Positions 7,312 through 36,122 of a stretch of DNA of 59,325 nt are shown here, piece by piece (positions within the stretch are counted from its first letter, which is position 1; the number at the start of each line of letters is the position of its first letter). The DNA lies in contig JAMXCX010000003.1 in the NCBI GenBank assembly GCA_024542985.1, positions 1-59,325 of the forward strand, in the 5' to 3' direction. The translations under genes and the position numbers were made by a program. Source of the DNA: Candidatus Omnitrophota bacterium. Its GTDB lineage: Bacteria; Omnitrophota; Gorgyraeia; Duberdicusellales; 4484-171. The notes below the pieces were generated by a model, which saw only the letters and a program-made list of their open reading frames with translations, was not told the origin of the DNA and made no database searches.

Positions 7312-10300
7312 ATGAAAATTGCTGAATATTCGGTAAAACATTCGCTTTTAGTAAACCTTATTTCGGTTTTTATCCTTATAGCCGGTTTTTATACTCTTTT
7401 TATTTTCAAAATTCCCCGTGAGGCCTTTCCTGAAGTTTCACGGGATATAGTAATCATACAGACTGCATATCCGGGAGCTCCGCCCCAGGATTTGGAGAAG
7501 TTAGTTACTATTCCTATTGAGAAAGAAATTAAAGGAATTGGAGGGGTTGAGGAAACTCAGTCTACTTCCCAAGAAAATATCTCGACTATAAGGGTGGATA
7601 TAAGCCAGGATGTAAAAGATAAACGTAAAGTAGTCGATGATATCCGGCGGGCAGTGGAGAGGGTGCAGGATTTACCCAGAGAAGTTGAAAAGCCGATTGT
7701 AACTGAAATTACTTCGGGCATGATACCGGTAATTCAGGTAGCTTTAAGCGGTGATTTAGATGAAGCTGTGCTGCAGGAATATGCAGAAAATTTGGAAGAC
7801 ATACTCGAAGATATCCCCGGAGTATCTAGTATTTCCCGGGGAGGTTGGAGGAATAAGGAGGTGTGGGTTGAGGTAGACCCCGGTAAAATGCGTGATGTGC
7901 ATGTGAGCCTGGAAGAAATAATGCTGGCTTTAAAGAAAAGAAATACTAGTATTCCCGGAGGAAAAATCCGCGCTCAAAAAGAATTCAGTATTCGTACTAC
8001 CGGTGAATTTTACACGACTGATGAAATCGAAAAAGTAGTTATTAGGGCTAATGAAGCCGGAAATTGGTTGCGGATAAAAGACGTAGCCAGGGTTAAATTT
8101 GGCTTTGAGGATGAAGACGTTATCAATAAAAGTTATGGTACGCGTTCAATTAATCTTACTGTTATTAAACGGGAAACAGCAGATGCAATTAAAATTGTCG
8201 ATCAGGTTAAAAAGGATACTAAAGATTTTCTTGAGTATGCCGATTCTAAGTTAAAAGTTTCCTACATAAGAGATATGTCCTTTTATATTAAACGCCGGCT
8301 GGGAGTGCTGAAGAATAACGGAATTATCGGCTTGTTTTTGGTTTGCTGTGTTTTGATGCTCTTTTTGAATTTCCGTATAGCCTTGTTAACAGCTTTAGGC
8401 CTTCCTATTGCTTTTTCTGCTACCATAACAGTGATGGGTTTTGTAGGATTAAGTATAAACCTTATTACTATGTTCGGGTTAATTATAGTTCTGGGCATGC
8501 TGGTGGATGATGGAATTATTGTAGCTGAGAATTGCGCCCGTTACTTGGAAGAAGGCCTTAATCCACGCCAGGCGGCTATCGTGGGTACACAGGAAGTGGC
8601 TAGGCCGGTTACCGCAACTATTATCACTACCATTGCTGCTTTTTTCCCACTTCTATTCATGGAAGGAATGTTGGGTAAATTCATCTGGGGCATACCCTTG
8701 GTAGTTGGTATTGCTTTGAGCGCATCTTTATTTGAGGCTTTGGTTATTTTACCTTCACATTTCGCTGATTTTGTTAGGGTAAGTAAGAAGTTTAGATCAA
8801 GGAAGGAGTTGCCTTGGTTTAAGAAACTGATTAGTTTTTATACTCGTATTCTTAACAAGGCTCTCAAGCGGCGTTATTGGGTATTATCCGGTTTGCTTAT
8901 CGCATTTTTTTTAACTATTCTTCTGGCAAAAAGCATGCCGTTTATTCTTTTTGGTTCCCAAGAAGGTATCGAGCAGTTTTATATTCGCGCCGAAGTTCCC
9001 TTAGGCACAAATATTTATACCACCAATAAATTGGTACGCCGGATAGAAGAGAAAGTTGAACAATTACCTAAAAACCAAGTAGCGACTTACACTACTCAGG
9101 TTGGCTTAACCAGCGGAAGGAGGATGTATGACCCTTACAGCAAGTCCGGGAGTCATGTCGCTCAAGTTGTGGTGTATCTTAATCCTTATTCTGAACGTAA
9201 GCGAAGGGTAAGTGAAATTATTGAAGATTTGAGGGAGAAAACTAAAGATATCCAAGGTTTTGATAAGATTTACTTTGAAAAACAACGTGCCGGGCCGCCG
9301 GTAGGAAAAGCCGTAGCTGTTAAAGTGCGGGGTGAGGATTTTTCTGTACTCCAGGAGATTGCCGGTAATATAGAGAATTTTTTAAAAGACAAGAAAGGAG
9401 TTTCTGATATTGCCTCTGATTATGAAATAGGCCGGGGAGAAATCCGGGTAGTTATTAATCAGGACGAGACCGCTCGTGCCTTTCTCTCAGTAGGTGAGAT
9501 TGCGGCTTCCATACGTAATGCTTTTCGGGGAGGAATAGCTACTACGATTAAGCCGGTTAAAGCTGAAGAAGAAATTGATGTTATAGTGCGTTTTCCTGAA
9601 AAATACCGCAATAAGAGAGAGACTTTTGATGAAATTCTAATTCCTAATAAGTTCGGACACCTCATTTCTTTAAAAAAGGTAGCCCATCTAGAGGATAAGT
9701 TATCAGTAGCCCGTATCCGGCATCTAAACGGTAAAAGGGTGATTACTATTAGAGCTGGTGTGGATAATAAGAATATGACTTCTTCAAAGGTAAATGAGCT
9801 CTTAAGCCAAGAATTTAAGGGTATATCAAGAAAATATCCCGGATACCGCATAGAGTATGGAGGAGAGCAGGAGGAAAACATAAAATCTAGGCGCAGCTTT
9901 ATAAGGGCTTTCGGTTTCGCTTTCTTTTTGATTTTTCTTATTTTGGCAGCTAATTTTAATTCTTTAGTTCAGCCTCTGGTTGTAATGATGGCAATTCCGT
10001 TTGGATTGATTGGCGTTATCTGGGCTTTTTTCTTCCATGGGGCTGCGATAAGCTTTTTTATGATGATGGGTGTTATTGGGCTTAGCGGTATTGTGGTTAA
10101 TGATTCTATTGTTTTAGTTGATTTTATTAATAATCTACGCCGCAAGGGAGTTGCCAGAAGGGATTCAATTGTTCAGGCCGGTCAACTACGCTTGAGGCCG
10201 GTTATACTTACTACCATTACCACAGCTCTCGGACTTACGCCTACTGCTTACGGCATTTGGGGAGGTGACCCCTTCTTAAAACCCATGGCACTTACTATTG

Positions 10301-10440
10301 TTTGGGGTATTATCTGCGCTACTGTGCTTACTTTGATCGCTCTTCCCTGTATCTATGCCATTATTGATGATATTGCACTTAAAATTTCCGGCCACGCTAT
10401 TGTGATAAGTAATAACAATAAAGAGAATAATAAGACTTAA
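7312..10440 (+). CDS. RND efflux transporter permease (AcrB/AcrD/AcrF family)
   Basis: 1042 aa; YPGA.P..E, GMLVDDGIIVAEN, GIVVNDSIVL and RLRPVILTT motifs. Confidence 0.95.
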   Translation: MKIAEYSVKHSLLVNLISVFILIAGFYTLFIFKIPREAFPEVSRDIVIIQTAYPGAPPQDLEKLVTIPIEKEIKGIGGVEETQSTSQENISTIRVDISQDVKDKRKVVDDIRRAVERVQDLPREVEKPIVTEITSGMIPVIQVALSGDLDEAVLQEYAENLEDILEDIPGVSSISRGGWRNKEVWVEVDPGKMRDVHVSLEEIMLALKKRNTSIPGGKIRAQKEFSIRTTGEFYTTDEIEKVVIRANEAGNWLRIKDVARVKFGFEDEDVINKSYGTRSINLTVIKRETADAIKIVDQVKKDTKDFLEYADSKLKVSYIRDMSFYIKRRLGVLKNNGIIGLFLVCCVLMLFLNFRIALLTALGLPIAFSATITVMGFVGLSINLITMFGLIIVLGMLVDDGIIVAENCARYLEEGLNPRQAAIVGTQEVARPVTATIITTIAAFFPLLFMEGMLGKFIWGIPLVVGIALSASLFEALVILPSHFADFVRVSKKFRSRKELPWFKKLISFYTRILNKALKRRYWVLSGLLIAFFLTILLAKSMPFILFGSQEGIEQFYIRAEVPLGTNIYTTNKLVRRIEEKVEQLPKNQVATYTTQVGLTSGRRMYDPYSKSGSHVAQVVVYLNPYSERKRRVSEIIEDLREKTKDIQGFDKIYFEKQRAGPPVGKAVAVKVRGEDFSVLQEIAGNIENFLKDKKGVSDIASDYEIGRGEIRVVINQDETARAFLSVGEIAASIRNAFRGGIATTIKPVKAEEEIDVIVRFPEKYRNKRETFDEILIPNKFGHLISLKKVAHLEDKLSVARIRHLNGKRVITIRAGVDNKNMTSSKVNELLSQEFKGISRKYPGYRIEYGGEQEENIKSRRSFIRAFGFAFFLIFLILAANFNSLVQPLVVMMAIPFGLIGVIWAFFFHGAAISFFMMMGVIGLSGIVVNDSIVLVDFINNLRRKGVARRDSIVQAGQLRLRPVILTTITTALGLTPTAYGIWGGDPFLKPMALTIVWGIICATVLTLIALPCIYAIIDDIALKISGHAIVISNNNKENNKT

Positions 10441-10521
10441 AACTTACAATATATCATTTCGTATTTGTTTTTATTGGCTGGATAAAGTATAATTTTATAG
10501 GTAGAGCCAGAGTAGATAATT

Positions 10522-11661
10522 ATGATTCAGAAACCATTTTTATTAAAAATTTACGAAGCTGCCAGTATGCAGCGCTGGAATGACCAAATACGCACAGTAG
10601 AACTTACAGAATTAGATAAGCAAGCCCATAAAATGATAATTGCTTATGTGTTGGGTAAGTGCGAAGAAGATTTTGGCACAAAAGGATTTGATTGGATAGA
10701 GGTTATAGAGGCCGGAATATTCGAATTTTTGCAGCGCATAGTAGTTACGGATTTAAAACCGGCATTATTTCACAGGATAAAAGAGGATAAGAAAAAATAT
10801 GCTCAGTTAAATGAGTGGGTTTATGAGAAAATAAACCCAATCATATCTCCCTTGGGAGAAGATTTTTGCAGGAGTTTTAAGAGCTATCTTCACGATACCA
10901 AACGGAACTTAAACCGCAGGATTATCAGCGCTGCCCATTTTTATGCCACAAAATGGGAGTTTGATATAATTGAGCGCGCCAATCCCAAAGGGTACTTAAT
11001 CAAGGAAATCAGAAAAGATATTAGGGAGAAGCAAAAGAGATATCACGATTTAAAAAGCATGCAGTTTTTGCTTAATTCGCCGCGTCTAAAATATTTTATA
11101 AATATATGCGGCCAGCTTCGTTTTCAGATACGCTGGAGCCATTTGCATCGGGCACCAAAAACTTCTGTTTTGGGGCACATGCTGCTAGTTGCAATGTTGT
11201 CATATCTTTTTTCCTTGCAGATAAAAGCTCAAGGCCAGAGATGTGTAAATAATTATTTTACCGGTCTTTTTCATGATTTGCCGGAGGTTCTTACCCGGGA
11301 TATAATTAACCCGGTAAAGCGCTCTGTTGAAGGTTTAAGTGAGTTAATCAAAGAATATGAATCTCAAGAAATGCAGAGAAAGATTTATAAGTTGATTCCT
11401 CGCTCTTGGCACGCTAGCATGCATATGTTTACCGAAAATGAGTTCGCTGATCTTGTTTCAAAAGAGGGCCTTATCCAAAGGGACGGAAGGTTAATTAAAG
11501 CTACAGATGAGTTGACCGCTTTTCTAGAGGCCTACCTGGCTTTATGCAACGGTATACAAAGCGAAGCTTTCAAAAATGCGAAACAGGACATTAAGAATCG
11601 ATATCATTCAAAGGTTATATCCGGGGTTAATTTCGGACAAATTTTTTCAGCTTTTGATTAA
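10522..11661 (+). CDS. Tandem HD-domain protein (YfbR-like phosphohydrolase)
   Basis: Two repeats (MQRW...H and QIRW...SVLGH); intact FHDLPE..TRD and KATD in the second repeat. Confidence 0.8.
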   Translation: MIQKPFLLKIYEAASMQRWNDQIRTVELTELDKQAHKMIIAYVLGKCEEDFGTKGFDWIEVIEAGIFEFLQRIVVTDLKPALFHRIKEDKKKYAQLNEWVYEKINPIISPLGEDFCRSFKSYLHDTKRNLNRRIISAAHFYATKWEFDIIERANPKGYLIKEIRKDIREKQKRYHDLKSMQFLLNSPRLKYFINICGQLRFQIRWSHLHRAPKTSVLGHMLLVAMLSYLFSLQIKAQGQRCVNNYFTGLFHDLPEVLTRDIINPVKRSVEGLSELIKEYESQEMQRKIYKLIPRSWHASMHMFTENEFADLVSKEGLIQRDGRLIKATDELTAFLEAYLALCNGIQSEAFKNAKQDIKNRYHSKVISGVNFGQIFSAFD

Positions 11662-17554: not shown

Positions 17555-17768
17555 TGTCAAAATTTATATGAAAATTACAAATTCCAAGCATCAAATAACA
17601 AATAATTACCAAATTCCAAGCATCAAATAACAAATAATTACCAAATTCCAATTTATAAATACCCAAAACATTAGTATCTATTTTAATGTTTTGAATTTTG
17701 GTCATTGAATATTGGAATTTATTTGGGATTTGGAAATTGATATTTGGGATTTACGTAAACTTTTGATA
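17555..17768. mobile_element. Non-autonomous MITE-like element, copy 1 (214 bp, with internal 32-bp tandem duplication)
   Basis: Near-identical to 24422-24603; imperfect terminal inverted repeats; 17578-17609 duplicated at 17610-17641. Confidence 0.75.
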
Positions 17769-17798
17769 ATACGAAGTATAACAAGGGGAGGCAATAAT

Positions 17799-19464: not shown

Positions 19465-21375
19465 ATGATTTACCTATACGACATTTCCAAAAGTTATGGC
19501 CGAAAAGACCTTTTCAAAAACCTTTCTTTAAGTATTAACAGAGGTGAGAAAATTGGATTAGTTGGCCCTAATGGTGCGGGAAAATCTACACTTTTTTTTC
19601 TTATCTTAGGACAAATTGAGGCTTGCGCAGGGAATATACAAATTAACAGAGGAGTCCGGATTGGATACCTTCCTCAAGAGGCTAGATTTGATTCCCAAAG
19701 CACAGTCTTGTCAGAGGTGCTTGGAGGTGATGAGAGCATTAGGAAACTTGAACAAGAGAAAGAATCATTGGAGCTAAACCACAAGGCAGGCTCAAGGCGC
19801 TATGGAGAAGTTTTGCATGATTTAGAGTTTCTAGGGTATTTCGACTTAGAGCATAGAACAAAAAAGATTCTCACCGGTTTAGGTTTTAAGCCTAAAGATT
19901 TCAATCGCCCCGTATGCCAGATGAGCGGCGGTTGGCAAATGCGGACTTTATTGGCGAAATTGCTGGTTTATCATTATGATATTTTGCTTCTTGATGAGCC
20001 CATGAACCATCTTGATTTAGTAGCTACTCTTTGGTTTAAGGATTATTTAGCCAATTTTAAAGAGTCATTTATTATGATTTCTCATGATAAAGACTTTTTA
20101 AACGATGTCACAAATTATACCTTGGTGTTAGAACAGGGTATTTTAACTAAGGTTAGAGGCAACTACGATGATTACCAGAAAATAATGGATGAGAAACGCT
20201 CATTTTTACAAAAGCAGTTTAATGAACAGCAGAAGAAGCGCGAGCAATTAAAGACATTTATTAGCCGTTTTCATGGTCAGCCTAATAAGGCTGCTCAGGT
20301 CCGGGCTAAAAAAAGAATGTTAGATAGGATGGCTGAAATTATAGTTCCTCCTGACAGGCGTGAAAGTATAAGGCGTTTTAGTTTTCCTCAAGCCAAGGCA
20401 AGCGGTTATCAAGTTATTGAGTTGAAAAATATTTCTAAGTTTTACGGAGATATTCAGGTGTATAAGGATTTCGATTTTGAAATAATCCGGGGGGAAAAGG
20501 GAGTATTCGTCGGAGAAAACGGAGCAGGCAAATCAACGTTGCTTAAAATTTTAGCCGGTGTTACTGATATTGATTCCGGCCAAAGATGCCGGGGTTATAA
20601 TACTGATATTGGCTATTTTTCGCAAACGCGCATGGATATTTTAAATCCCTACAATACGGTATTTGAAGAGGCCTATTCAGCTTCCGCGGGAAGAGTTCCC
20701 CCGGGAGATATAAGAACTATATTGGCAGTATTTTTATTTAGCGGTGATGATGTTGATAAAAAAGTTAGTATTCTTTCCGGAGGCGAAAAAAGCCGGCTCA
20801 TTTTAGCTAAGCTTTTAATCAATCCTCCGAATTTGCTCCTTTTAGACGAACCAACAACACATTTAGATGTGGACGCAGTTGATGCTTTGATTAAGGCTTT
20901 GACTGACTACACGGGAACTCTGGTATTTATCAGCCACGATATTCATTTTGTCAGGTCTGTAGCCAATGCTGTTTTTGAGGTTAAAGACGCAAGGGTAAAG
21001 AAGTTTCCCGGCAATTTCGATTATTATTGGCAAAAGACTAAGGAAACTCCGGCCCCAAAAGACGATTTTAAAAATCAGAATAAAAATAAATCTTTTGATA
21101 GTCAGAGGCCTAAGCCGAAAAAGATATCTGCCGGGGCCCGGGAAAGAGAACGCACAAAACACAACAGTGCAATTTCCAAGAAAATACGCGAGTTACGAAA
21201 AGAATTGGGAAAAATAGAACTTGAGCGCAATGTTAAAGCCCGGATTTTATCTAACCCTCGCAGTTATCATAATAAAAAAATGGTTATAGAATATGGCCGT
21301 ATTCTTAAGCAAATAGAACAGCGGATATCCGAGATTAACTTAAAGATAAAAAAGCTGAAAGATTCATTTATCTAA
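19465..21375 (+). CDS. ABC-F family ribosome-associated ATPase
   Basis: Two ABC cassettes (GPNGAGKST/SGGW/LLLDEP and GENGAGKST/LSGGE/LLLDEP), no TM segments, coiled-coil tail. Confidence 0.95.
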   Translation: MIYLYDISKSYGRKDLFKNLSLSINRGEKIGLVGPNGAGKSTLFFLILGQIEACAGNIQINRGVRIGYLPQEARFDSQSTVLSEVLGGDESIRKLEQEKESLELNHKAGSRRYGEVLHDLEFLGYFDLEHRTKKILTGLGFKPKDFNRPVCQMSGGWQMRTLLAKLLVYHYDILLLDEPMNHLDLVATLWFKDYLANFKESFIMISHDKDFLNDVTNYTLVLEQGILTKVRGNYDDYQKIMDEKRSFLQKQFNEQQKKREQLKTFISRFHGQPNKAAQVRAKKRMLDRMAEIIVPPDRRESIRRFSFPQAKASGYQVIELKNISKFYGDIQVYKDFDFEIIRGEKGVFVGENGAGKSTLLKILAGVTDIDSGQRCRGYNTDIGYFSQTRMDILNPYNTVFEEAYSASAGRVPPGDIRTILAVFLFSGDDVDKKVSILSGGEKSRLILAKLLINPPNLLLLDEPTTHLDVDAVDALIKALTDYTGTLVFISHDIHFVRSVANAVFEVKDARVKKFPGNFDYYWQKTKETPAPKDDFKNQNKNKSFDSQRPKPKKISAGARERERTKHNSAISKKIRELRKELGKIELERNVKARILSNPRSYHNKKMVIEYGRILKQIEQRISEINLKIKKLKDSFI

Positions 21376-22997: not shown

Positions 22998-23068
22998 AAC
23001 GCTAATTTTAATCTGCTTGATATCTAACCGATGCAAAACAGTTAAGAGTGTAAAAAGCATTTTAGTTT

Positions 23069-23608
23069 ATGCAAAAAAATATTCACGGGATAATAGTTGA
23101 GTGTTTAGGAGGTAATATAGCCGCCCAAAGCGATGCTGATGCAGTAGTAAATGCCGCCAATGCCCAGCTGCGCATTGGGGGAGGTGTCGCCGGAGCAATA
23201 CATAGAGCTGCGGGTCCGGGCCTTGAGATTGAATGCCGTCCGCTTGCGCCGATTAAACCCGGAGAGGCAGTTATAACCAGCGGACAGGGTTTGCCAAACG
23301 CCTATTGCATACATTGCCTGGGGCCGATTTATGGCCGGGATAAGCCCGAAACTACACTATTGTCAAGCTGTTACCGCAAGGCCTTAGCTTTAGCAGAAAA
23401 ACATAAAATTAAAATTATTGCTTTTCCGGCGATTTCAGCCGGTGCCTTTGGCTATCCTCTAGAGGAGGCGGCAAAAGTTGCCTTGAAAACAGTCATTGAG
23501 GAAGCTTCCCAATTGCAACAGGTAAAAAAAATTCGCTTTGTCCTGTATGGTCTGAAAAGTCTAGAAATACATCAAAAGATTTTATCCGATCTGACTTCGA
23601 ATAGCTAA
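23069..23608 (+). CDS. Macro domain protein (O-acetyl-ADP-ribose deacetylase / YmdB-like)
   Basis: AVVNAAN, GGGVAGAIH and AFPAISAGAFGYP motifs. Confidence 0.93.
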   Translation: MQKNIHGIIVECLGGNIAAQSDADAVVNAANAQLRIGGGVAGAIHRAAGPGLEIECRPLAPIKPGEAVITSGQGLPNAYCIHCLGPIYGRDKPETTLLSSCYRKALALAEKHKIKIIAFPAISAGAFGYPLEEAAKVALKTVIEEASQLQQVKKIRFVLYGLKSLEIHQKILSDLTSNS

Positions 23609-23634
23609 AATACCACAATTCCTTTTTTTAGTAA

Positions 23635-23746
23635 ACCCCGTTAGAGAACTTCGTCCTTTTACCCCGTTAGATAGTAAACATCTAACGGGGTCAGCTTCAA
23701 TCGGTAATGACCACCGATTAAAATCGGTGGCTTTCTCTAACGGGGT
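23635..23746. repeat. Nested inverted-repeat element (ACCCCGTTAGA...TCTAACGGGGT)
   Basis: Outer IR 23635-23648/23733-23746, inner IR 23661-23672/23680-23691, plus hairpin CCACCGATT-AA-AATCGGTGG at 23711-23730. Confidence 0.85.
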
Positions 23747-23794
23747 AAAAGCAGGCTTTAACCAGACCGTATTAGAGCCTAAATTCATTTCTAA

Positions 23795-24235
23795 TACATT
23801 TGACTAGTCATTTTGAAATAAAAGTTTCTAATGAAGACGATAAATAAAGGATATTTTCTATATATTTGACTAGTCATTTTGCAAGTATGAATAGCAGCAT
23901 TTAAGGGGGAGGAGCAAAGAAAGAAGATGAGCAAGGCTGTTTTTCTTGGCATTTCAACTCTAAGGAAGAGCAACCAAATTCCAAATATACATTTGACTAG
24001 TCATTTTGAAATATATTTTTGCCCAATGCTTTGTTTAGAGGAGCGAGGACATATATATTTGACTAGGCAAATTGAAATATATATATAGGGAGCATAGACT
24101 TATTTTTGTGTATTTATAAGGAGAGTAGTCTCTTATGAGATAGTGTATTACTAGCATTTGACTAGTCAAATGCTAGTATAATTTCAGAATTAGTATAGTT
24201 ACTGTCTATATATCTGACTAGTCATATAGCAAATA
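23795..24235. repeat. Cluster of six palindromic TGACTAGTCA sites in ~26-bp repeats
   Basis: Cores at 23801, 23867, 23994, 24060 (one mismatch), 24159 and 24215; perfect 30-bp palindrome at 24149-24178. Confidence 0.9.
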
Positions 24236-24421
24236 GATTAGTTTTCTGAGGCTCCTCAAAATAGGGCTTAAGGGTCGCATATCTCTTTTGGGGCTTTAGT
24301 GAAATTATTGGATTGACCTAAAAGGATAAATATCCGCACTCGACTTAAGGCGGACTTTTTGTTATAATAGTTTTAATTTTCTGTTGGGCATGTTTTAAAA
24401 CTTTGTATATTCAAAAGGTAA

Positions 24422-24603
24422 TGTCAAAATTTATATGAAAATTACAAATTCCAAGCATCAAAGAACAAATAATTACCAAATTCCAATTTATAAATACCCA
24501 AAACATTAGTATCTATTTTAATGTTTTGAATTTTGGTCATTGAATATTGGAATTTATTTGGGATTTGGAAATTGATATTTGGGATTTAAGTAAACTTTTG
24601 GCA
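24422..24603. mobile_element. Non-autonomous MITE-like element, copy 2 (182 bp)
   Basis: Matches 17555-17768 apart from the 32-bp duplication and a few substitutions; ends TGTCAAAATTTA / TAAACTTTTGGCA. Confidence 0.75.
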
Positions 24604-24657
24604 ATAGGATTCAAAAAATAAGTAGATTAGTCATGGACAATTAACATAGGAGGATTA

Positions 24658-25206
24658 ATGAGCCGGATAATGTTATTTATGGATGCTGAATATGTGGTTC
24701 AAAAGTTGAGGGAAATTCGCAAGGGGCGTAAGATAGTGCGTCGTAAAGATATCCAGTGGGCTAATATGATAAAGTGGATAGTAGGGAGGGAAAGGCTAAC
24801 CCGTTGTTATTATTATTCTTCAGAGTTGAACAAAGATGAAAATAGCCAGACTTATCAAGAGCAGCAAGAATACCTAAAGAGCCTTAAGCTGAGCATTCCC
24901 TATTTTGAAGTTAAGTTAGGCCGATTAGTGCGTGTCCATGATGGCTGGGTTCAAAAAGGAGTCGATGTGAAAATTTCCTTGGATATGTTTTCCAAAGCTG
25001 TTTTAAACCATTACGATATTGCCGCTCTTGTTTCCGGAGATTCTGATTTTGCCGAGGTTATAACCGAAGTAAAAGAAAGATACGGAAAGCATGTAGAGCT
25101 TTATACCTTTGACAGCACGATTCATGATGCCTTAAGGCTTGCTCCGGATAAGCACATAATAATTGATAGCCAAACTGCACGTAGAAATAATTTTTGGTCT
25201 GATTAA
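24658..25206 (+). CDS. NYN domain (LabA/DUF88, PIN-like) nuclease
   Basis: LFMD, QKGVDVKISLD, LVSGDSDF and GKHVEL motifs; AGGAGG RBS. Confidence 0.9.
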   Translation: MSRIMLFMDAEYVVQKLREIRKGRKIVRRKDIQWANMIKWIVGRERLTRCYYYSSELNKDENSQTYQEQQEYLKSLKLSIPYFEVKLGRLVRVHDGWVQKGVDVKISLDMFSKAVLNHYDIAALVSGDSDFAEVITEVKERYGKHVELYTFDSTIHDALRLAPDKHIIIDSQTARRNNFWSD

Positions 25207-31986: not shown

Positions 31987-33684
31987 ATGTTCGAGCAAAT
32001 CAGTTATATTTTAACTAAAATATCTTCTGTCCATTTGAATATATTGTTTCTTTTAGGGTTGGCTTTATTCGGCGGAGTTTTGGGAGGAAGACTGTTCCAG
32101 AAACTACGCATTCCTCAAGTTGTCGGTTATATAGTCATAGGAATAATAATTGGCGAATCTTTCCTGAAAATTATCGGGCACGATACAGTTGTGGCTTTGC
32201 AGCCTTTTAACTACTTTGCTTTAGGGTTAATCGGCTTTATGATAGGCGGGGAGTTAAAAAAGGAAGTCTTTGCTAAATATGGCAGACAGTTTTTTAAAAT
32301 CTTATTTTTTGAGGGTATTACCGCATTCTTAGCAGTTTCTATTTTTATAGGAATGCTAGGTACATTGCTTTTTGGAGATTGGAAATTTGCCTGGGCTTTA
32401 GGTTTATTATTAGGCGCTATTGCTTCAGCCACAGCTCCTGCTGCAACTACTGTTGTCTTACGCGAATACAAAACCCGAGGGCCCCTAACTAGAACAATAT
32501 TAGGTATTGTTGCTTTAGATGACGCCTTGGCACTTTTGCTCTTTGCCGTTGCTTCTAGTATTGCCGGCAGTTTAACCGGCCGCCTTCAGCAAGGAGTTTT
32601 AAAAGCCTTCATTGCCCCTATATACGAGATAGGGATGTCTATAGGCATAGGTCTGGTAGCAGGAATAGTTCTTAATAAGATTTTTAAAAAATATTCTGAG
32701 AAGGAAAGGCTTTTGGCCTTTTCCGTGGGGGCAGTGCTTTTTGTTACCGGTTTATCTTTGCTAATACATGTTGATATGCTTCTGGCAGCAATGACCTTAG
32801 GAGTTGTTGTTGCTAATTTTGCTCCTCGTAAAAGCCAGGATGCTTTTAAGTTGGTAGAGGGATTTACGCCTCCTATCCATGTTATTTTTTTCGTGCTCGT
32901 GGGGGCGAAATTGAATATACATCATATGACATTACCGATAATTCTGCTGGCAACAGTTTATCTTATTGCAAGGAGTGCAGGAAAGGCAATCGGTGCAAAC
33001 GTGGGAGCACGTATATCAGGTGCAGCAAAGTCTGTACAAAAATATCTGCCTTTGTGCCTTTTTAGTCAAGCCGGAGTTGCTATTGGTTTATCTATTTTGG
33101 CTAGTCATTATTTTCCCGGCCGGATAGGTAACATGATAGTTATCATCGTGACTGCTACGGCCTTGATTTTAGAAATTATTGGCCCTGCTCTTGTTAAAAT
33201 AGCGGTGACTAAAGCCGGTGAGGTAGGTTTGAATGTAACCGAAGAAGATTTAATTGACAGTACGAAAGCTACAGACCTCATGGATAAAAAACCACCTTTA
33301 ATATCTAAGAATATGTCCTTGTCGGAAATTTTGGATATTTTTAGCAAGAGCCCTAACCTGTATTATCCGGTAGTAGATACGGATAAGAAGTTATTAGGCG
33401 TTATAACTGTAGACAGCATCAAGAACATTTTTATGGAAACAGGGCTTAGCTCTTTGCTCTTAGCCATAGATGTTATGGAGGAGCCGGTGGCTTCGGTTAA
33501 TCCGGAGTCATCGTTGTTGTCAGTGAAAGAACTCTTAGATAAATATAATCTTGAATATTTGCCGGTAGTAACAAGCGATAATGTAATGAAGGGTTTCATC
33601 GAAAGACGGATACTTGCTAAGTTAATTTCGACTAAAATTTTGGAATTACAAAGACAAGCTGATTCTTTGGAAGGGGTTTCCTAG
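31987..33684 (+). CDS. Cation:proton antiporter (CPA) with C-terminal CBS pair
   Basis: Multi-TM; ATAPA, VALDD and QAGVAIG motifs; tandem CBS domains (YYPVVD, YLPVV). Confidence 0.9.
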   Translation: MFEQISYILTKISSVHLNILFLLGLALFGGVLGGRLFQKLRIPQVVGYIVIGIIIGESFLKIIGHDTVVALQPFNYFALGLIGFMIGGELKKEVFAKYGRQFFKILFFEGITAFLAVSIFIGMLGTLLFGDWKFAWALGLLLGAIASATAPAATTVVLREYKTRGPLTRTILGIVALDDALALLLFAVASSIAGSLTGRLQQGVLKAFIAPIYEIGMSIGIGLVAGIVLNKIFKKYSEKERLLAFSVGAVLFVTGLSLLIHVDMLLAAMTLGVVVANFAPRKSQDAFKLVEGFTPPIHVIFFVLVGAKLNIHHMTLPIILLATVYLIARSAGKAIGANVGARISGAAKSVQKYLPLCLFSQAGVAIGLSILASHYFPGRIGNMIVIIVTATALILEIIGPALVKIAVTKAGEVGLNVTEEDLIDSTKATDLMDKKPPLISKNMSLSEILDIFSKSPNLYYPVVDTDKKLLGVITVDSIKNIFMETGLSSLLLAIDVMEEPVASVNPESSLLSVKELLDKYNLEYLPVVTSDNVMKGFIERRILAKLISTKILELQRQADSLEGVS

Positions 33685-34263: not shown

Positions 34264-34875
34264 TCATTTTTCCGGGACTGCAGTAATGTTCCATTGAATT
34301 AGGATATTGTTTCTGACCAGAAGCCCTCCTTTATCAAATAATTTGCTCCAGACAACTTTGAATTTTTTCCTATTCACAAAACAGCTTCCTTTTGATATTA
34401 GGTGAGAGATTCTTGATTTTTTTTCTGCGAATTCTTTAATTGTAAATGCGAAAGATACCTCTTGTTTTATTCCGTGTAAGTCTAAAATTCCCTTTATATA
34501 ATATTTACCTTTTTTTTGCGTTACAGATTTACCGGCAAAAGTTATTTCGGGGTGTAATTTTGAGTTCAACATCCTTTTGGACCGGATGAGGCGGTTGATA
34601 AAAGGTTTTTTCGTCTCGATACTGGCAGTTTTAATTTTTATAAATACCGAGCTTTTGGTAATATCTTTGGGATTGTAATGAATTACACCGGAGAAGTCTT
34701 TGAATTCACCTTTTAATTTAGTAGCTACAAGGTAGCCTACCGAGCAGGTAATTGCAGAGTTATCAGGTTCAATAGTGTATTTATCTTGGCCATTTGACGG
34801 CAGGATGAACGCAACATTTATAAGTAGCAGGAGGGCAAAAATTGATTTTTCTTTAATCTTCGGGTTTTTTATCAT
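34264..34875 (-). CDS. YceI family lipid/polyisoprenoid-binding protein
   Basis: Signal peptide; GEFKDFSG, SIET, PEITF and GILDLHG motifs. Confidence 0.85.
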   Translation of the reverse strand: MIKNPKIKEKSIFALLLLINVAFILPSNGQDKYTIEPDNSAITCSVGYLVATKLKGEFKDFSGVIHYNPKDITKSSVFIKIKTASIETKKPFINRLIRSKRMLNSKLHPEITFAGKSVTQKKGKYYIKGILDLHGIKQEVSFAFTIKEFAEKKSRISHLISKGSCFVNRKKFKVVWSKLFDKGGLLVRNNILIQWNITAVPEK

Positions 34876-35040
34876 ATAAGCTTAACCGGCGGTTTATATT
34901 TGTGCTGCTTATTCATTCTAAATCATTTTTTAAAAAACATCAATTAATTTTATGATTGAGAAAAATAGTTTTTTTGGTTCTTATATTTTTTTGATATTTT
35001 GTTATAATAAATAGTATAAGGTAAACATTGATTATAGCCT

Positions 35041-35631
35041 ATGTTACGAATATTTTCTTTTAGCATTATCTGTGTCTCGGTTTTCGTGATTACTGCTTTT
35101 TTTATGCCCTGGGTAAGCGGCAGGGGTAGTATTTTAGAACCTTTAGATGATTCCACAAAGTTCATCCAGAAAATCGAAATTACCGGTACGTTTAAAGGAG
35201 CTGTTGAGATAGCAAAAAAAACCGCAGATGCTCTCACTTACGTTTTTACACATAAAAGACTTAATAAGACTATCAAGGGATTTCAGATACCTCTGCTTAT
35301 GGCTAAAAGCATGGGGATTCGGGTGTATATGTTGTATGGGGTTCCGATTGCGGCAACATTATTTTGTTTTTTAACCCTTGCCGGTAATCGCTGGAGACGC
35401 TTTGACATAATTGTGGTTTTGCTGGCACTAGGCATATTCTTTATGCTTTATAGGCAAGAGCGTCTTTTTAATCAGGAAAAGCTATTTATAAATATTCAAG
35501 CTCGATGGGGTTTTATAACTACTGTGTATTCATTTTTAGCTATAAGCTGTCTTTCTTTGCTAAAATTAACAATTAGCCGAAAAGCCTACCGGTTCAAGAA
35601 AAGAAGGCAACCAAAAATGCATAAGAAGTAA
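35041..35631 (+). CDS. Hypothetical membrane protein
   Basis: About four hydrophobic segments and an FMPW motif. Confidence 0.65.
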   Translation: MLRIFSFSIICVSVFVITAFFMPWVSGRGSILEPLDDSTKFIQKIEITGTFKGAVEIAKKTADALTYVFTHKRLNKTIKGFQIPLLMAKSMGIRVYMLYGVPIAATLFCFLTLAGNRWRRFDIIVVLLALGIFFMLYRQERLFNQEKLFINIQARWGFITTVYSFLAISCLSLLKLTISRKAYRFKKRRQPKMHKK

Positions 35632-35717
35632 GAATAATCAATATTCCGCTATTTCGATAGGAATGATATTTAGCTTTTCAGGCGCCCGTCTTGCCTTTCC
35701 AATCTTTTTAGTAATTC

Positions 35718-36122
35718 TTAGTATATTATACGCAATAACCAGAAAATAATCATTAGTATTAGGATTGTAAGGTGCAGAGTTCGATGTTTTTTACCTAAAA
35801 GGATTTTTCCCGGCAAAAGACACAGAACCATGGCTAAGAGTAAAGGCAGAGAAAAAAGATTAAGCGCAAGTGCTTTAAGAATTTTTAACTGTCCTAAATG
35901 CAGCATGGCTCTGGTCATGCCGCATCCGGGACAGGGGATGCCTGTAATGGCCCGAAAAGGACAAATTGAAAAGTGCGGCAGGTAATTAGTAAAATCTATG
36001 CCAAATAAATAAAGATAGACGCCGCAAGATATAATTATGGCTAGGGTAAGAATTACAAAAGCTCGCAAGATGAAATCCGGGCTCTGATAATAGGCTCTTG
36101 CGGACTTTTGCCTAAAGGGCAT
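35718..36122 (-). CDS. DUF2752 family membrane protein
   Basis: CPFRAITGIPCPGCGMTRA signature. Confidence 0.9.
   Translation of the reverse strand: MPFRQKSARAYYQSPDFILRAFVILTLAIIISCGVYLYLFGIDFTNYLPHFSICPFRAITGIPCPGCGMTRAMLHLGQLKILKALALNLFSLPLLLAMVLCLLPGKILLGKKHRTLHLTILILMIIFWLLRIIY

Follow-up and report, generated by a model that had tools for sequence, protein, structure and literature searches.

Six palindromic sites in a gene-free island

The stretch of DNA analysed here, referred to as the window, comprises 59,325 nucleotides and is contig C49 of an assembly of 1,574,856 bases in 106 contigs, estimated to be 88% complete. Within the window, a Macro-domain gene and an NYN-domain gene enclose a gene-free island (Table 1), with NUDIX and RlpA-like genes farther out upstream and endonuclease III (nth) and IspH genes farther out downstream. 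A first-pass annotation made from the sequence alone had described this island as about 1 kb of non-coding DNA holding six palindromic sites, and both the extent of the island and the spacings that it gave for the sites agree with the coordinates obtained here. The three small ORFs in the island match no Pfam family, no Rfam covariance model gives a match at E ≤ 1 between positions 23000 and 25000, and no tRNA is found between positions 21000 and 27000.

Table 1. Coordinates of the features discussed (positions in the window, unless contig C70 is named)
Feature	Position	Strand	Description
Macro-domain gene	23069-23608	+	left border of the island
Gene-free island	23609-24657		1049 bp, between the Macro-domain and NYN-domain genes
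Site 1	23793-23820	+	core TGACTAGTCA at 23801-23810, in the 28-nt conserved block
Site 2	23859-23886	+	core at 23867-23876
127-bp unit	23864-23990		present here, skipped in the contig from run X2
Site 3	23986-24013	+	core at 23994-24003
Site 4	24052-24079	+	core TGACTAGGCA at 24060-24069
Site 5	24149-24178		perfect 30-bp palindrome, core at 24159-24168
Site 6	24207-24234	+	core at 24215-24224; left flank ATC (ATT at the other sites)
Sigma-70-like promoter match	24340-24368	+	TCGACT-17-TATAAT with TG (extended -10), 116 nt past site 6
NYN-domain gene	24658-25206	+	right border of the island
parA	C70:32069-32863	-	borders the parS gap
dnaA	C70:35469-36800

Five of the sites carry an exact TGACTAGTCA core and site 4 carries TGACTAGGCA. 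The cores extend over 424 bp, from 23801 to 24224, with start-to-start distances of 66, 127, 66, 99, and 56 bp and uneven inter-core gaps of 46 to 117 bp. Alignment of the six sites gives a conserved block of about 28 nt, composed of TATAYATT, TGACTAGTCA, and a TTTTGAAATA-like stretch. Sites 1 and 3, previously noted as identical over 26 bp, match over 27 nt (23794-23820 and 23987-24013), and the perfect 30-bp palindrome noted at the same time corresponds to site 5. Sites 1 to 4 and 6 have asymmetric flanks, all in one orientation, and a -10-like TAYATT hexamer abuts the core in four sites. In their middle parts, the two 66-bp intervals agree at 9 of 37 positions, which is no better than shuffled (permutation P = 0.69) and bears out the earlier remark that the DNA between the sites is unrelated; the repeated unit is therefore the sites themselves and not a longer tandem repeat.

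These features also bear on the suggestion, made in the first-pass annotation, of a degenerate CRISPR-like or small-RNA array. Set against a block of about 28 nt, the start-to-start spacings do not follow the regular repeat-spacer period of a CRISPR, and the dyad, TGAC-TA-GTCA (5+5), is loopless and cannot fold into a hairpin; with the uneven gaps and the lack of Rfam matches in the region, these features count against such an array. The companion suggestion, that a cluster of loopless dyads marks sites of a dimeric DNA-binding protein, stands as a prediction, given six copies in non-coding DNA in the format of a centromere array.

With respect to the distribution of the motif, we observe seven matches with at most one mismatch to the core in the window, compared with a shuffle mean of 0.66, and none of 100 shuffles reached seven. 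The seventh match, TGGCTAGTCA at 33098, falls within a Na+/H+ exchanger ORF. Across the whole assembly, the array accounts for all five exact TGACTAGTCA copies and for 6 of the 18 copies with at most one mismatch, so that the genome-wide mapping proposed earlier finds the exact copies gathered in the array and not scattered.

Besides the sites, the island holds several repeats. A two-hairpin CCCCGTTAGA element at 23629-23749 is dispersed in this genome and its relatives, is up to 100% identical over 60 nt to a genome of another family, and occurs in public runs in many variants with differing inserts. At 24414-24606 there is a MITE-like element, an AT-rich inverted repeat roughly 190 bp long with many copies in the genome and its relatives, further copies lying at positions 17604-17774 of the window and at C19:7643-7793. 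The 34-nt leader at 24621-24654, which includes the RBS of the NYN gene, has copies of 97% identity in one relative (G008), where they lie some 95 nt in from the ends at which several contigs start, and occurs in other relatives as well; judged by these copies, it looks like part of another repeat. The distance between the Macro and NYN genes is only 17 nt in two relatives, and in relatives L045 and L049 the gap contains a 23S_rRNA_IVP (four-helix-bundle) gene between AT-rich inverted repeats, the MITE-like element described here looking as if it were an empty version of that cassette. The repeats in the island and the varied contents of the gap among relatives thus indicate a lineage-specific insertion hot spot.

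Comparison with the parS array and retention of the sites in a relative

The chromosomal partition locus of this genome provides a direct comparison. The dnaA gene and the sole ParB_N gene of the assembly both lie on contig C70, where six GTTTTCACGTGAAAAC copies form the parS centromere (C70:32886-33410, 525 bp) beside parA, parB, and dnaA; they occupy a 556-bp non-coding gap between parA and a yidC-like gene, at spacings of 68, 212, 70, 49, and 112. Both arrays consist of six copies of one palindrome in roughly 0.5 kb of non-coding DNA with uneven spacing (49-212 bp for parS and 56-127 bp for the array in the island), and a scan of the assembly for palindromic 10-mers occurring at least three times within 700 bp returned these two clusters alone. 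They differ in sequence (GTTTTCACGTGAAAAC versus TTGACTAGTCAA) and in setting, the TGACTAGTCA array being adjacent to neither parAB nor dnaA. The parS consensus is a 16-bp palindrome of the TGTTNCACGTGNAACA type; the core TGACTAGTCA is not such a palindrome, and the ParABS sites of this genome are the six copies on C70.

Since the parS sites of ParB are found elsewhere, the earlier proposal of a non-canonical parS is wrong as to ParB. The proposal of iteron-like repeats fares no better, as the sites are unevenly spaced dyads and no Rep family is present among the 21 neighbouring ORFs scanned. With dnaA on C70 and the array on C49, the two lie on different contigs. GC skew is positive throughout the 59-kb window with no switch, so the array probably does not lie at an origin or terminus switch. 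Synteny with closed relatives is not conserved.

Among the relatives, the array was found in a single close one. A BLAST search of the island against 40 relatives returned, among the matches listed, the repeat families and the 34-nt leader and no array. Elsewhere in the order, 9 of 84 genomes contain the 11-mer TTGACTAGTCA, at a single place in each, in coding or unrelated contexts and at a rate close to that of a reversed-pattern control, and none of the 84 has a multi-site cluster. The nearest NYN orthologue in the genome collection is 74% identical, so the collection contains no close relative, and a metagenome scan yielded no NYN orthologue more than 82% identical; no sites are found upstream of NYN orthologues in the loci of 29 relatives and in 11 metagenome loci. 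The best public runs share less than 0.2 of the words, mostly via repeats, and among the runs listed as containing island sequence there is no RNA run.

A relative with about 93% identity, represented by contigs obtained from four public runs of one study, nevertheless retains the array. The first-pass annotation had counted absence from relatives as evidence against a functional cluster; such absence is what we find at the genus level and above, whereas this relative keeps the sites. A 536-nt contig from run X2 reads from 23630 to 23863 and then continues straight at 23991, with 127 bp missing and a junction that falls within the repeat (15 ambiguous letters), giving the layout S1-66-S2/3-66-S4-99-S5-56-S6. 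The array thus varies in copy number. The missing unit includes the RBS and start of a 53-aa ORF (23927-24088); since no other ORF of the island is preceded by a plausible RBS, none of them, this one included, has the marks of a conserved gene, and the 53-aa ORF is not one.

We observe at least 37 differences between this relative and the window over the 513 nt covered by contigs of that organism alone. Among the differences listed, one falls within 50 core nucleotides (24067), where the X2 relative reads T and thereby has the consensus core, and each of the five covered cores of the relative is of the consensus type. At 24214 the relative reads T, giving the usual TTTGAC flank at site 6, and in X2 the differences at 24154 and 24173 mirror each other across the palindrome of site 5, with the first of the two alone seen in X1. 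The deficit of differences in the sites, calculated for one relative and for the differences listed, gives one-sided Fisher P values of 0.10 for the cores and 0.05 for the 16-mers; the deficit is suggestive but not significant.

These comparisons also weigh on the idea that the sites are an operator or enhancer cluster, controlling either the NYN-nth genes through the promoter match past site 6 or small unannotated transcripts of the island. That match is a strong sigma-70-like one pointing toward the NYN-nth genes, none of the differences listed for X2 falls inside it, and the TAYATT hexamers at the core edge of four sites resemble -10 elements. The predicted promoter, however, overlaps no site, the TAYATT hexamers have no -35 partner (at best 3 of 6 letters at spacers of 15 to 19), and promoter-like matches in the region number 5, compared with a shuffle expectation of 5.6. 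The NYN orthologues surveyed above do without the sites, and the relative lacks the start of the single RBS-bearing ORF inside the island. On balance, we regard control of a promoter as unlikely.

The palindrome and an associated protein family in other lineages

For the palindrome more widely, we surveyed one genome per species across 185,579 species for two cores 40 to 70 bp apart. The survey yielded 46 loci, 29 of which have at least four sites; a rough chance estimate, made with uniform base composition, lies in the teens, so many of the bare pairs may be noise. Small Hymenobacter contigs account for 19 of the loci. On the complete 13.2-kb Hymenobacter plasmid NZ_CP094540.1, all 10 sites (at most one mismatch, 4 of the 10 exact) lie at 9473-10735, upstream of, within, and downstream of an annotated 'DNA-binding protein' and the next gene. 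A Gracilibacteria genome has all four of its exact copies at a homologous gene, and in a Peregrinibacteria genome the array is arranged likewise around the homologous gene. Arrays of TGACTAGTCA around such a gene were located at L066:1278-2070, L092:2000-2646, and L117:9473-10735 and at 18 further Hymenobacter loci; a family profile detects the gene in 21 of the 50 loci L055 to L104.

The array-linked proteins are 160 to 180 aa long and have an HTH_17/excisionase-type N terminus, joined by a variable linker to a long helix, after which comes a short hydrophobic helix at the C terminus. For the two proteins from candidate phyla, the N terminus matches Pfam with E values of 1e-7 to 1e-8; the Hymenobacter match is weaker. 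A structure model of the family places a winged helix-turn-helix (wHTH) domain at residues 5-55, a disordered segment at 56-124, a helix at 125-158, and a short helix at 163-174, and is confident at residues 5-55 and 125-174. A representative library contains 155 members of the family at E ≤ 1e-3, of which 50 reach E ≤ 1e-10. The linker of these proteins contains conserved LTSQ/LTNQ motifs; read in frame, TTGACTAGTCAA encodes Leu-Thr-Ser-Gln, and in L066 and L092 the sites within the gene land exactly on the linker motif. In the class around the Gracilibacteria genome, the family is present in 16 of 151 genomes (E ≤ 1e-10), and arrays of the exact word are limited to the three closest members, so the word seems to co-vary with the protein.

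The top Foldseek matches of the family are the DNA-binding domains of Xis (Pukovnik), P2 Cox, RdfS, BldC, and RacA, with no match in the fold search at E ≤ 0.001; the family profile found coiled-coil noise alone among PDB sequences, and the family does not match Pfam families of the DUF536 type. The RacA DNA-binding domain (5i44) ranks ninth, with a Foldseek E value of 0.019. RacA of Bacillus subtilis, as described in PMC4914108, joins a MerR-type winged helix to a coiled coil through a disordered linker, which is also the plan of the family linked to TGACTAGTCA arrays. As given there, its ram sites are clustered 14-bp TGACGCCGGCGTCA sequences whose terminal TpG steps are read by Arg19; ram starts with TGAC and ends with GTCA, as do the array sites, and is clustered like them, but it has a GC-rich 6-bp center where the array site has a 2-bp TA center. 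RocS of Streptococcus pneumoniae, as outlined in PMC11500499, begins with a wHTH, continues with a coiled coil, and ends in an amphipathic helix, and the order of these parts is the same in the modelled family; RocS and pSK1 Par are presented there as single-protein segregation factors, and the passages on RocS consulted name no specific DNA motif for it. Against this background, an array together with a wHTH-coiled-coil gene looks like an undescribed module for single-protein partition or autoregulation.

The motif occurs in other settings as well. Two Bacteriovorax genomes have sites in the dnaA-dnaN gap (L091:2001-2230 and L095:2001-2079), one of these sites being bordered by inverted TTATCCACA boxes; in Bacteriovorax, all three copies of a 3.7-Mb genome lie in this gap. 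Nitrosopumilaceae have 19 of 20 copies within 3.2 kb, and Bathyarchaeia have 14 scattered copies. The wHTH-coiled-coil family is absent from all three of these lineages, and therefore the motif alone does not name its binder.

Candidate binders in this genome and the proposed role of the array

Returning to the genome under study, we find no DNA-binding protein among the 21 neighbouring ORFs scanned, in keeping with the first-pass statement that no cognate protein is encoded alongside. The N-terminal-domain profile of the wHTH-coiled-coil family reaches a best E value of only 0.017 in a six-frame search of the assembly, and with the full family profile none of 401 genomes of the phylum gives a match at E ≤ 1e-6, whereas both control genomes are positive. 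Seven HTH_17 genes are present in the assembly (two small, two receiver-fused, one bactofilin-fused, one ending in a membrane helix, and one truncated at a contig end), together with two small MerR_1 genes; the architectures of all nine differ from the wHTH-coiled-coil plan, none has sites nearby, and the small HTH_17 and MerR genes stand in pilus, transporter, or hsp20 contexts. Two of the HTH_17 genes lie next to each other on contig C106, one encoding a bactofilin domain with a C-terminal HTH_17 fusion (34831-35319) and the other an HTH_17 protein with a C-terminal membrane helix (35441-35752), possibly a pair that tethers DNA to the cytoskeleton or the membrane. We considered the latter protein as a membrane tether of the array and rejected it; among 74 genomes of the family, all of them devoid of the array, 65 have it as a core gene, so there is no specific link.

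The best reading of the locus is an orphan, lineage-specific, centromere-like docking array that is either served in trans or was left behind by a mobile single-protein partition module. We tentatively put first a centromere-like or anchoring nucleoprotein platform served in trans, at a probability that we judge to fall somewhat short of even. The six blocks of about 28 to 30 bp centered on TGAC-TA-GTCA would be docking sites for a dimeric, sequence-specific protein, most likely a winged-helix protein of the MerR/excisionase type, and several dimers within about 430 bp would assemble into one higher-order nucleoprotein complex, modelled on ParB at a six-site parS array and on RacA at clustered ram sites. 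Such a complex would serve as a centromere-like or anchoring mark and not as the operator of a particular promoter. The binder is neither beside the array nor in the 88%-complete assembly and would therefore act in trans, from an unassembled part of the genome or an extrachromosomal element; what favors a platform of this kind is that the sites are the only perfect targets of the protein in the assembly and are packed in the manner of parS.

The array shares with the RacA, RocS, and pSK1 Par systems the clustered palindromes with TG...CA ends, seen in all six sites; it differs from them in that the cognate gene for a wHTH and coiled coil, be it RacA-like or RocS-type, is not found in this 88%-complete assembly. 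In the wHTH-coiled-coil systems of other lineages the gene lies inside the array, whereas here the largest gap between sites, 127 bp, is geneless. Several points count against the platform, namely, the failure to find the binder, the lack of the array in other genera, the one-sided P values of 0.10 and 0.05, and the one-directional flanks, since a symmetric dimer leaves the asymmetric, uniformly oriented flanks of sites 1 to 4 and 6 unexplained. A non-coding cluster of sites can act through occupancy, and datA of Escherichia coli, a DnaA-box cluster, is a titration locus. By analogy, the array may likewise consist of non-coding sites for a protein encoded elsewhere and act by occupancy rather than by control of an adjacent promoter; the protein and the sites are different ones.

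Several of the same observations are what would be expected of an orphaned relic, in which a mobile single-protein partition or replication module integrated in the hot spot, its gene was lost, and the sites are now functionless. The gap collects mobile DNA (the two-hairpin element, the MITE-like repeat, and the 23S_rRNA_IVP cassette in relatives), the array is missing from other genera, the binder is not found in the genome or the phylum, and the comparison of cores with spacers gives P = 0.10. The condition of the sites points the other way, however, with five of six cores perfect, all five covered cores of the relative of the consensus type among the differences listed, and an array that is cleaner than those that still bear the gene, such as L170 (one exact site and five with one mismatch) or the Hymenobacter plasmid with its 4 exact sites out of 10. 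A six-frame profile search of the island also found no fragment of a wHTH gene. In our assessment, a functionless relic is a fairly improbable account.

The perfect sites without a gene, the lineage-specific array in a mobile-DNA hot spot, and the strain-variable copy number would also be explained by a chromosomal decoy, i.e., a copy of a plasmid or phage centromere or operator array that the host keeps, that titrates a RacA/RocS-like factor, and that thereby destabilizes the invader. We consider this quite improbable; if true, it would amount to incompatibility used as immunity.

A role in site-specific recombination, with the dyads as accessory or crossover sites (res-like, or arm-type/excisionase sites of an integrated element), draws on the fold search, in which Pukovnik Xis, P2 Cox, and RdfS, all of them excisionases, are among the top matches of the family, on a Saprospiraceae locus where two sites lie ahead of a small HTH_17 ORF adjoining an integrase-like gene, and on the 14-2-14 layout of site 5. 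A 14-2-14 layout is typical of recombinase sites. The assembly, however, has no match to the serine recombinase domain (Resolvase, PF00239), no integrase is present among the neighbouring ORFs scanned, and six similar dyads with uneven spacing correspond to no known res or att architecture. The sole rearrangement joint that we observed is the deletion of the unit between repeats in X2. We therefore hold such a role to be very improbable.

If the platform is real, a small-genome, uncultivated bacterium would have, in addition to parS, another chromosomal locus marked by a nucleoprotein complex of its own. The arrays of TGACTAGTCA around RacA/RocS-like genes on Hymenobacter plasmids and on Gracilibacteria and Peregrinibacteria chromosomes appear to be an undescribed pairing, and they provide a testable candidate for single-protein DNA segregation outside the Firmicutes. 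Clusters of palindromic protein sites are already known, and it is this word, its orphan state, and its pairing with RacA/RocS-like genes that appear not to be in print. In a search of full-text literature, the 10-mer did not turn up as a bacterial binding site, its occurrences belonging to primer, construct, or eukaryotic contexts as judged by title and abstract; a literature search on Hymenobacter plasmids gave nothing relevant.

The last of the earlier suggestions, that the sites are boxes for a TetR-type protein such as FadR, rests on the fit of the core to TGAnTAnTCA, and the TetR_N domain (PF00440) has no match in the 88%-complete assembly. Taken jointly, a non-canonical parS for the chromosomal ParB, a CRISPR-like or small-RNA array, and TetR/FadR boxes are extremely improbable, even with a parS-array format and a fitting core in their favor; six GTTTTCACGTGAAAAC copies near parA with a single ParB_N gene, no Rfam match, uneven gaps, a loopless dyad, and the lack of TetR_N all weigh against them. 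A position weight matrix (PWM) of the array, for which about 0.17 matches scoring at least 16 are expected per random genome, finds a single outlier outside the array (C46:3431, score 20.9; the next match scores 14.1). This sole match lies before an acyl-CoA-ligase-type gene, and we rejected it as a seventh site; it belongs to a different operator, TAGTAAAATTTTACTA-N3-AAATTTTACTA, that is conserved in the family at 30 of 30 orthologous loci and whose variable N3 happens to read GTC here. The whole promoter-operator, TTGACT-N16-TAGTAAAATTTTACTA-N3-AAATTTTACTA, is found family-wide, at C46:3385-3454 (L137) in this genome and at 29 orthologous loci (L139 to L167), and on C46 it precedes an operon of AMP-ligase (acyl-CoA-ligase-type) and beta-ketoacyl-synthase genes.
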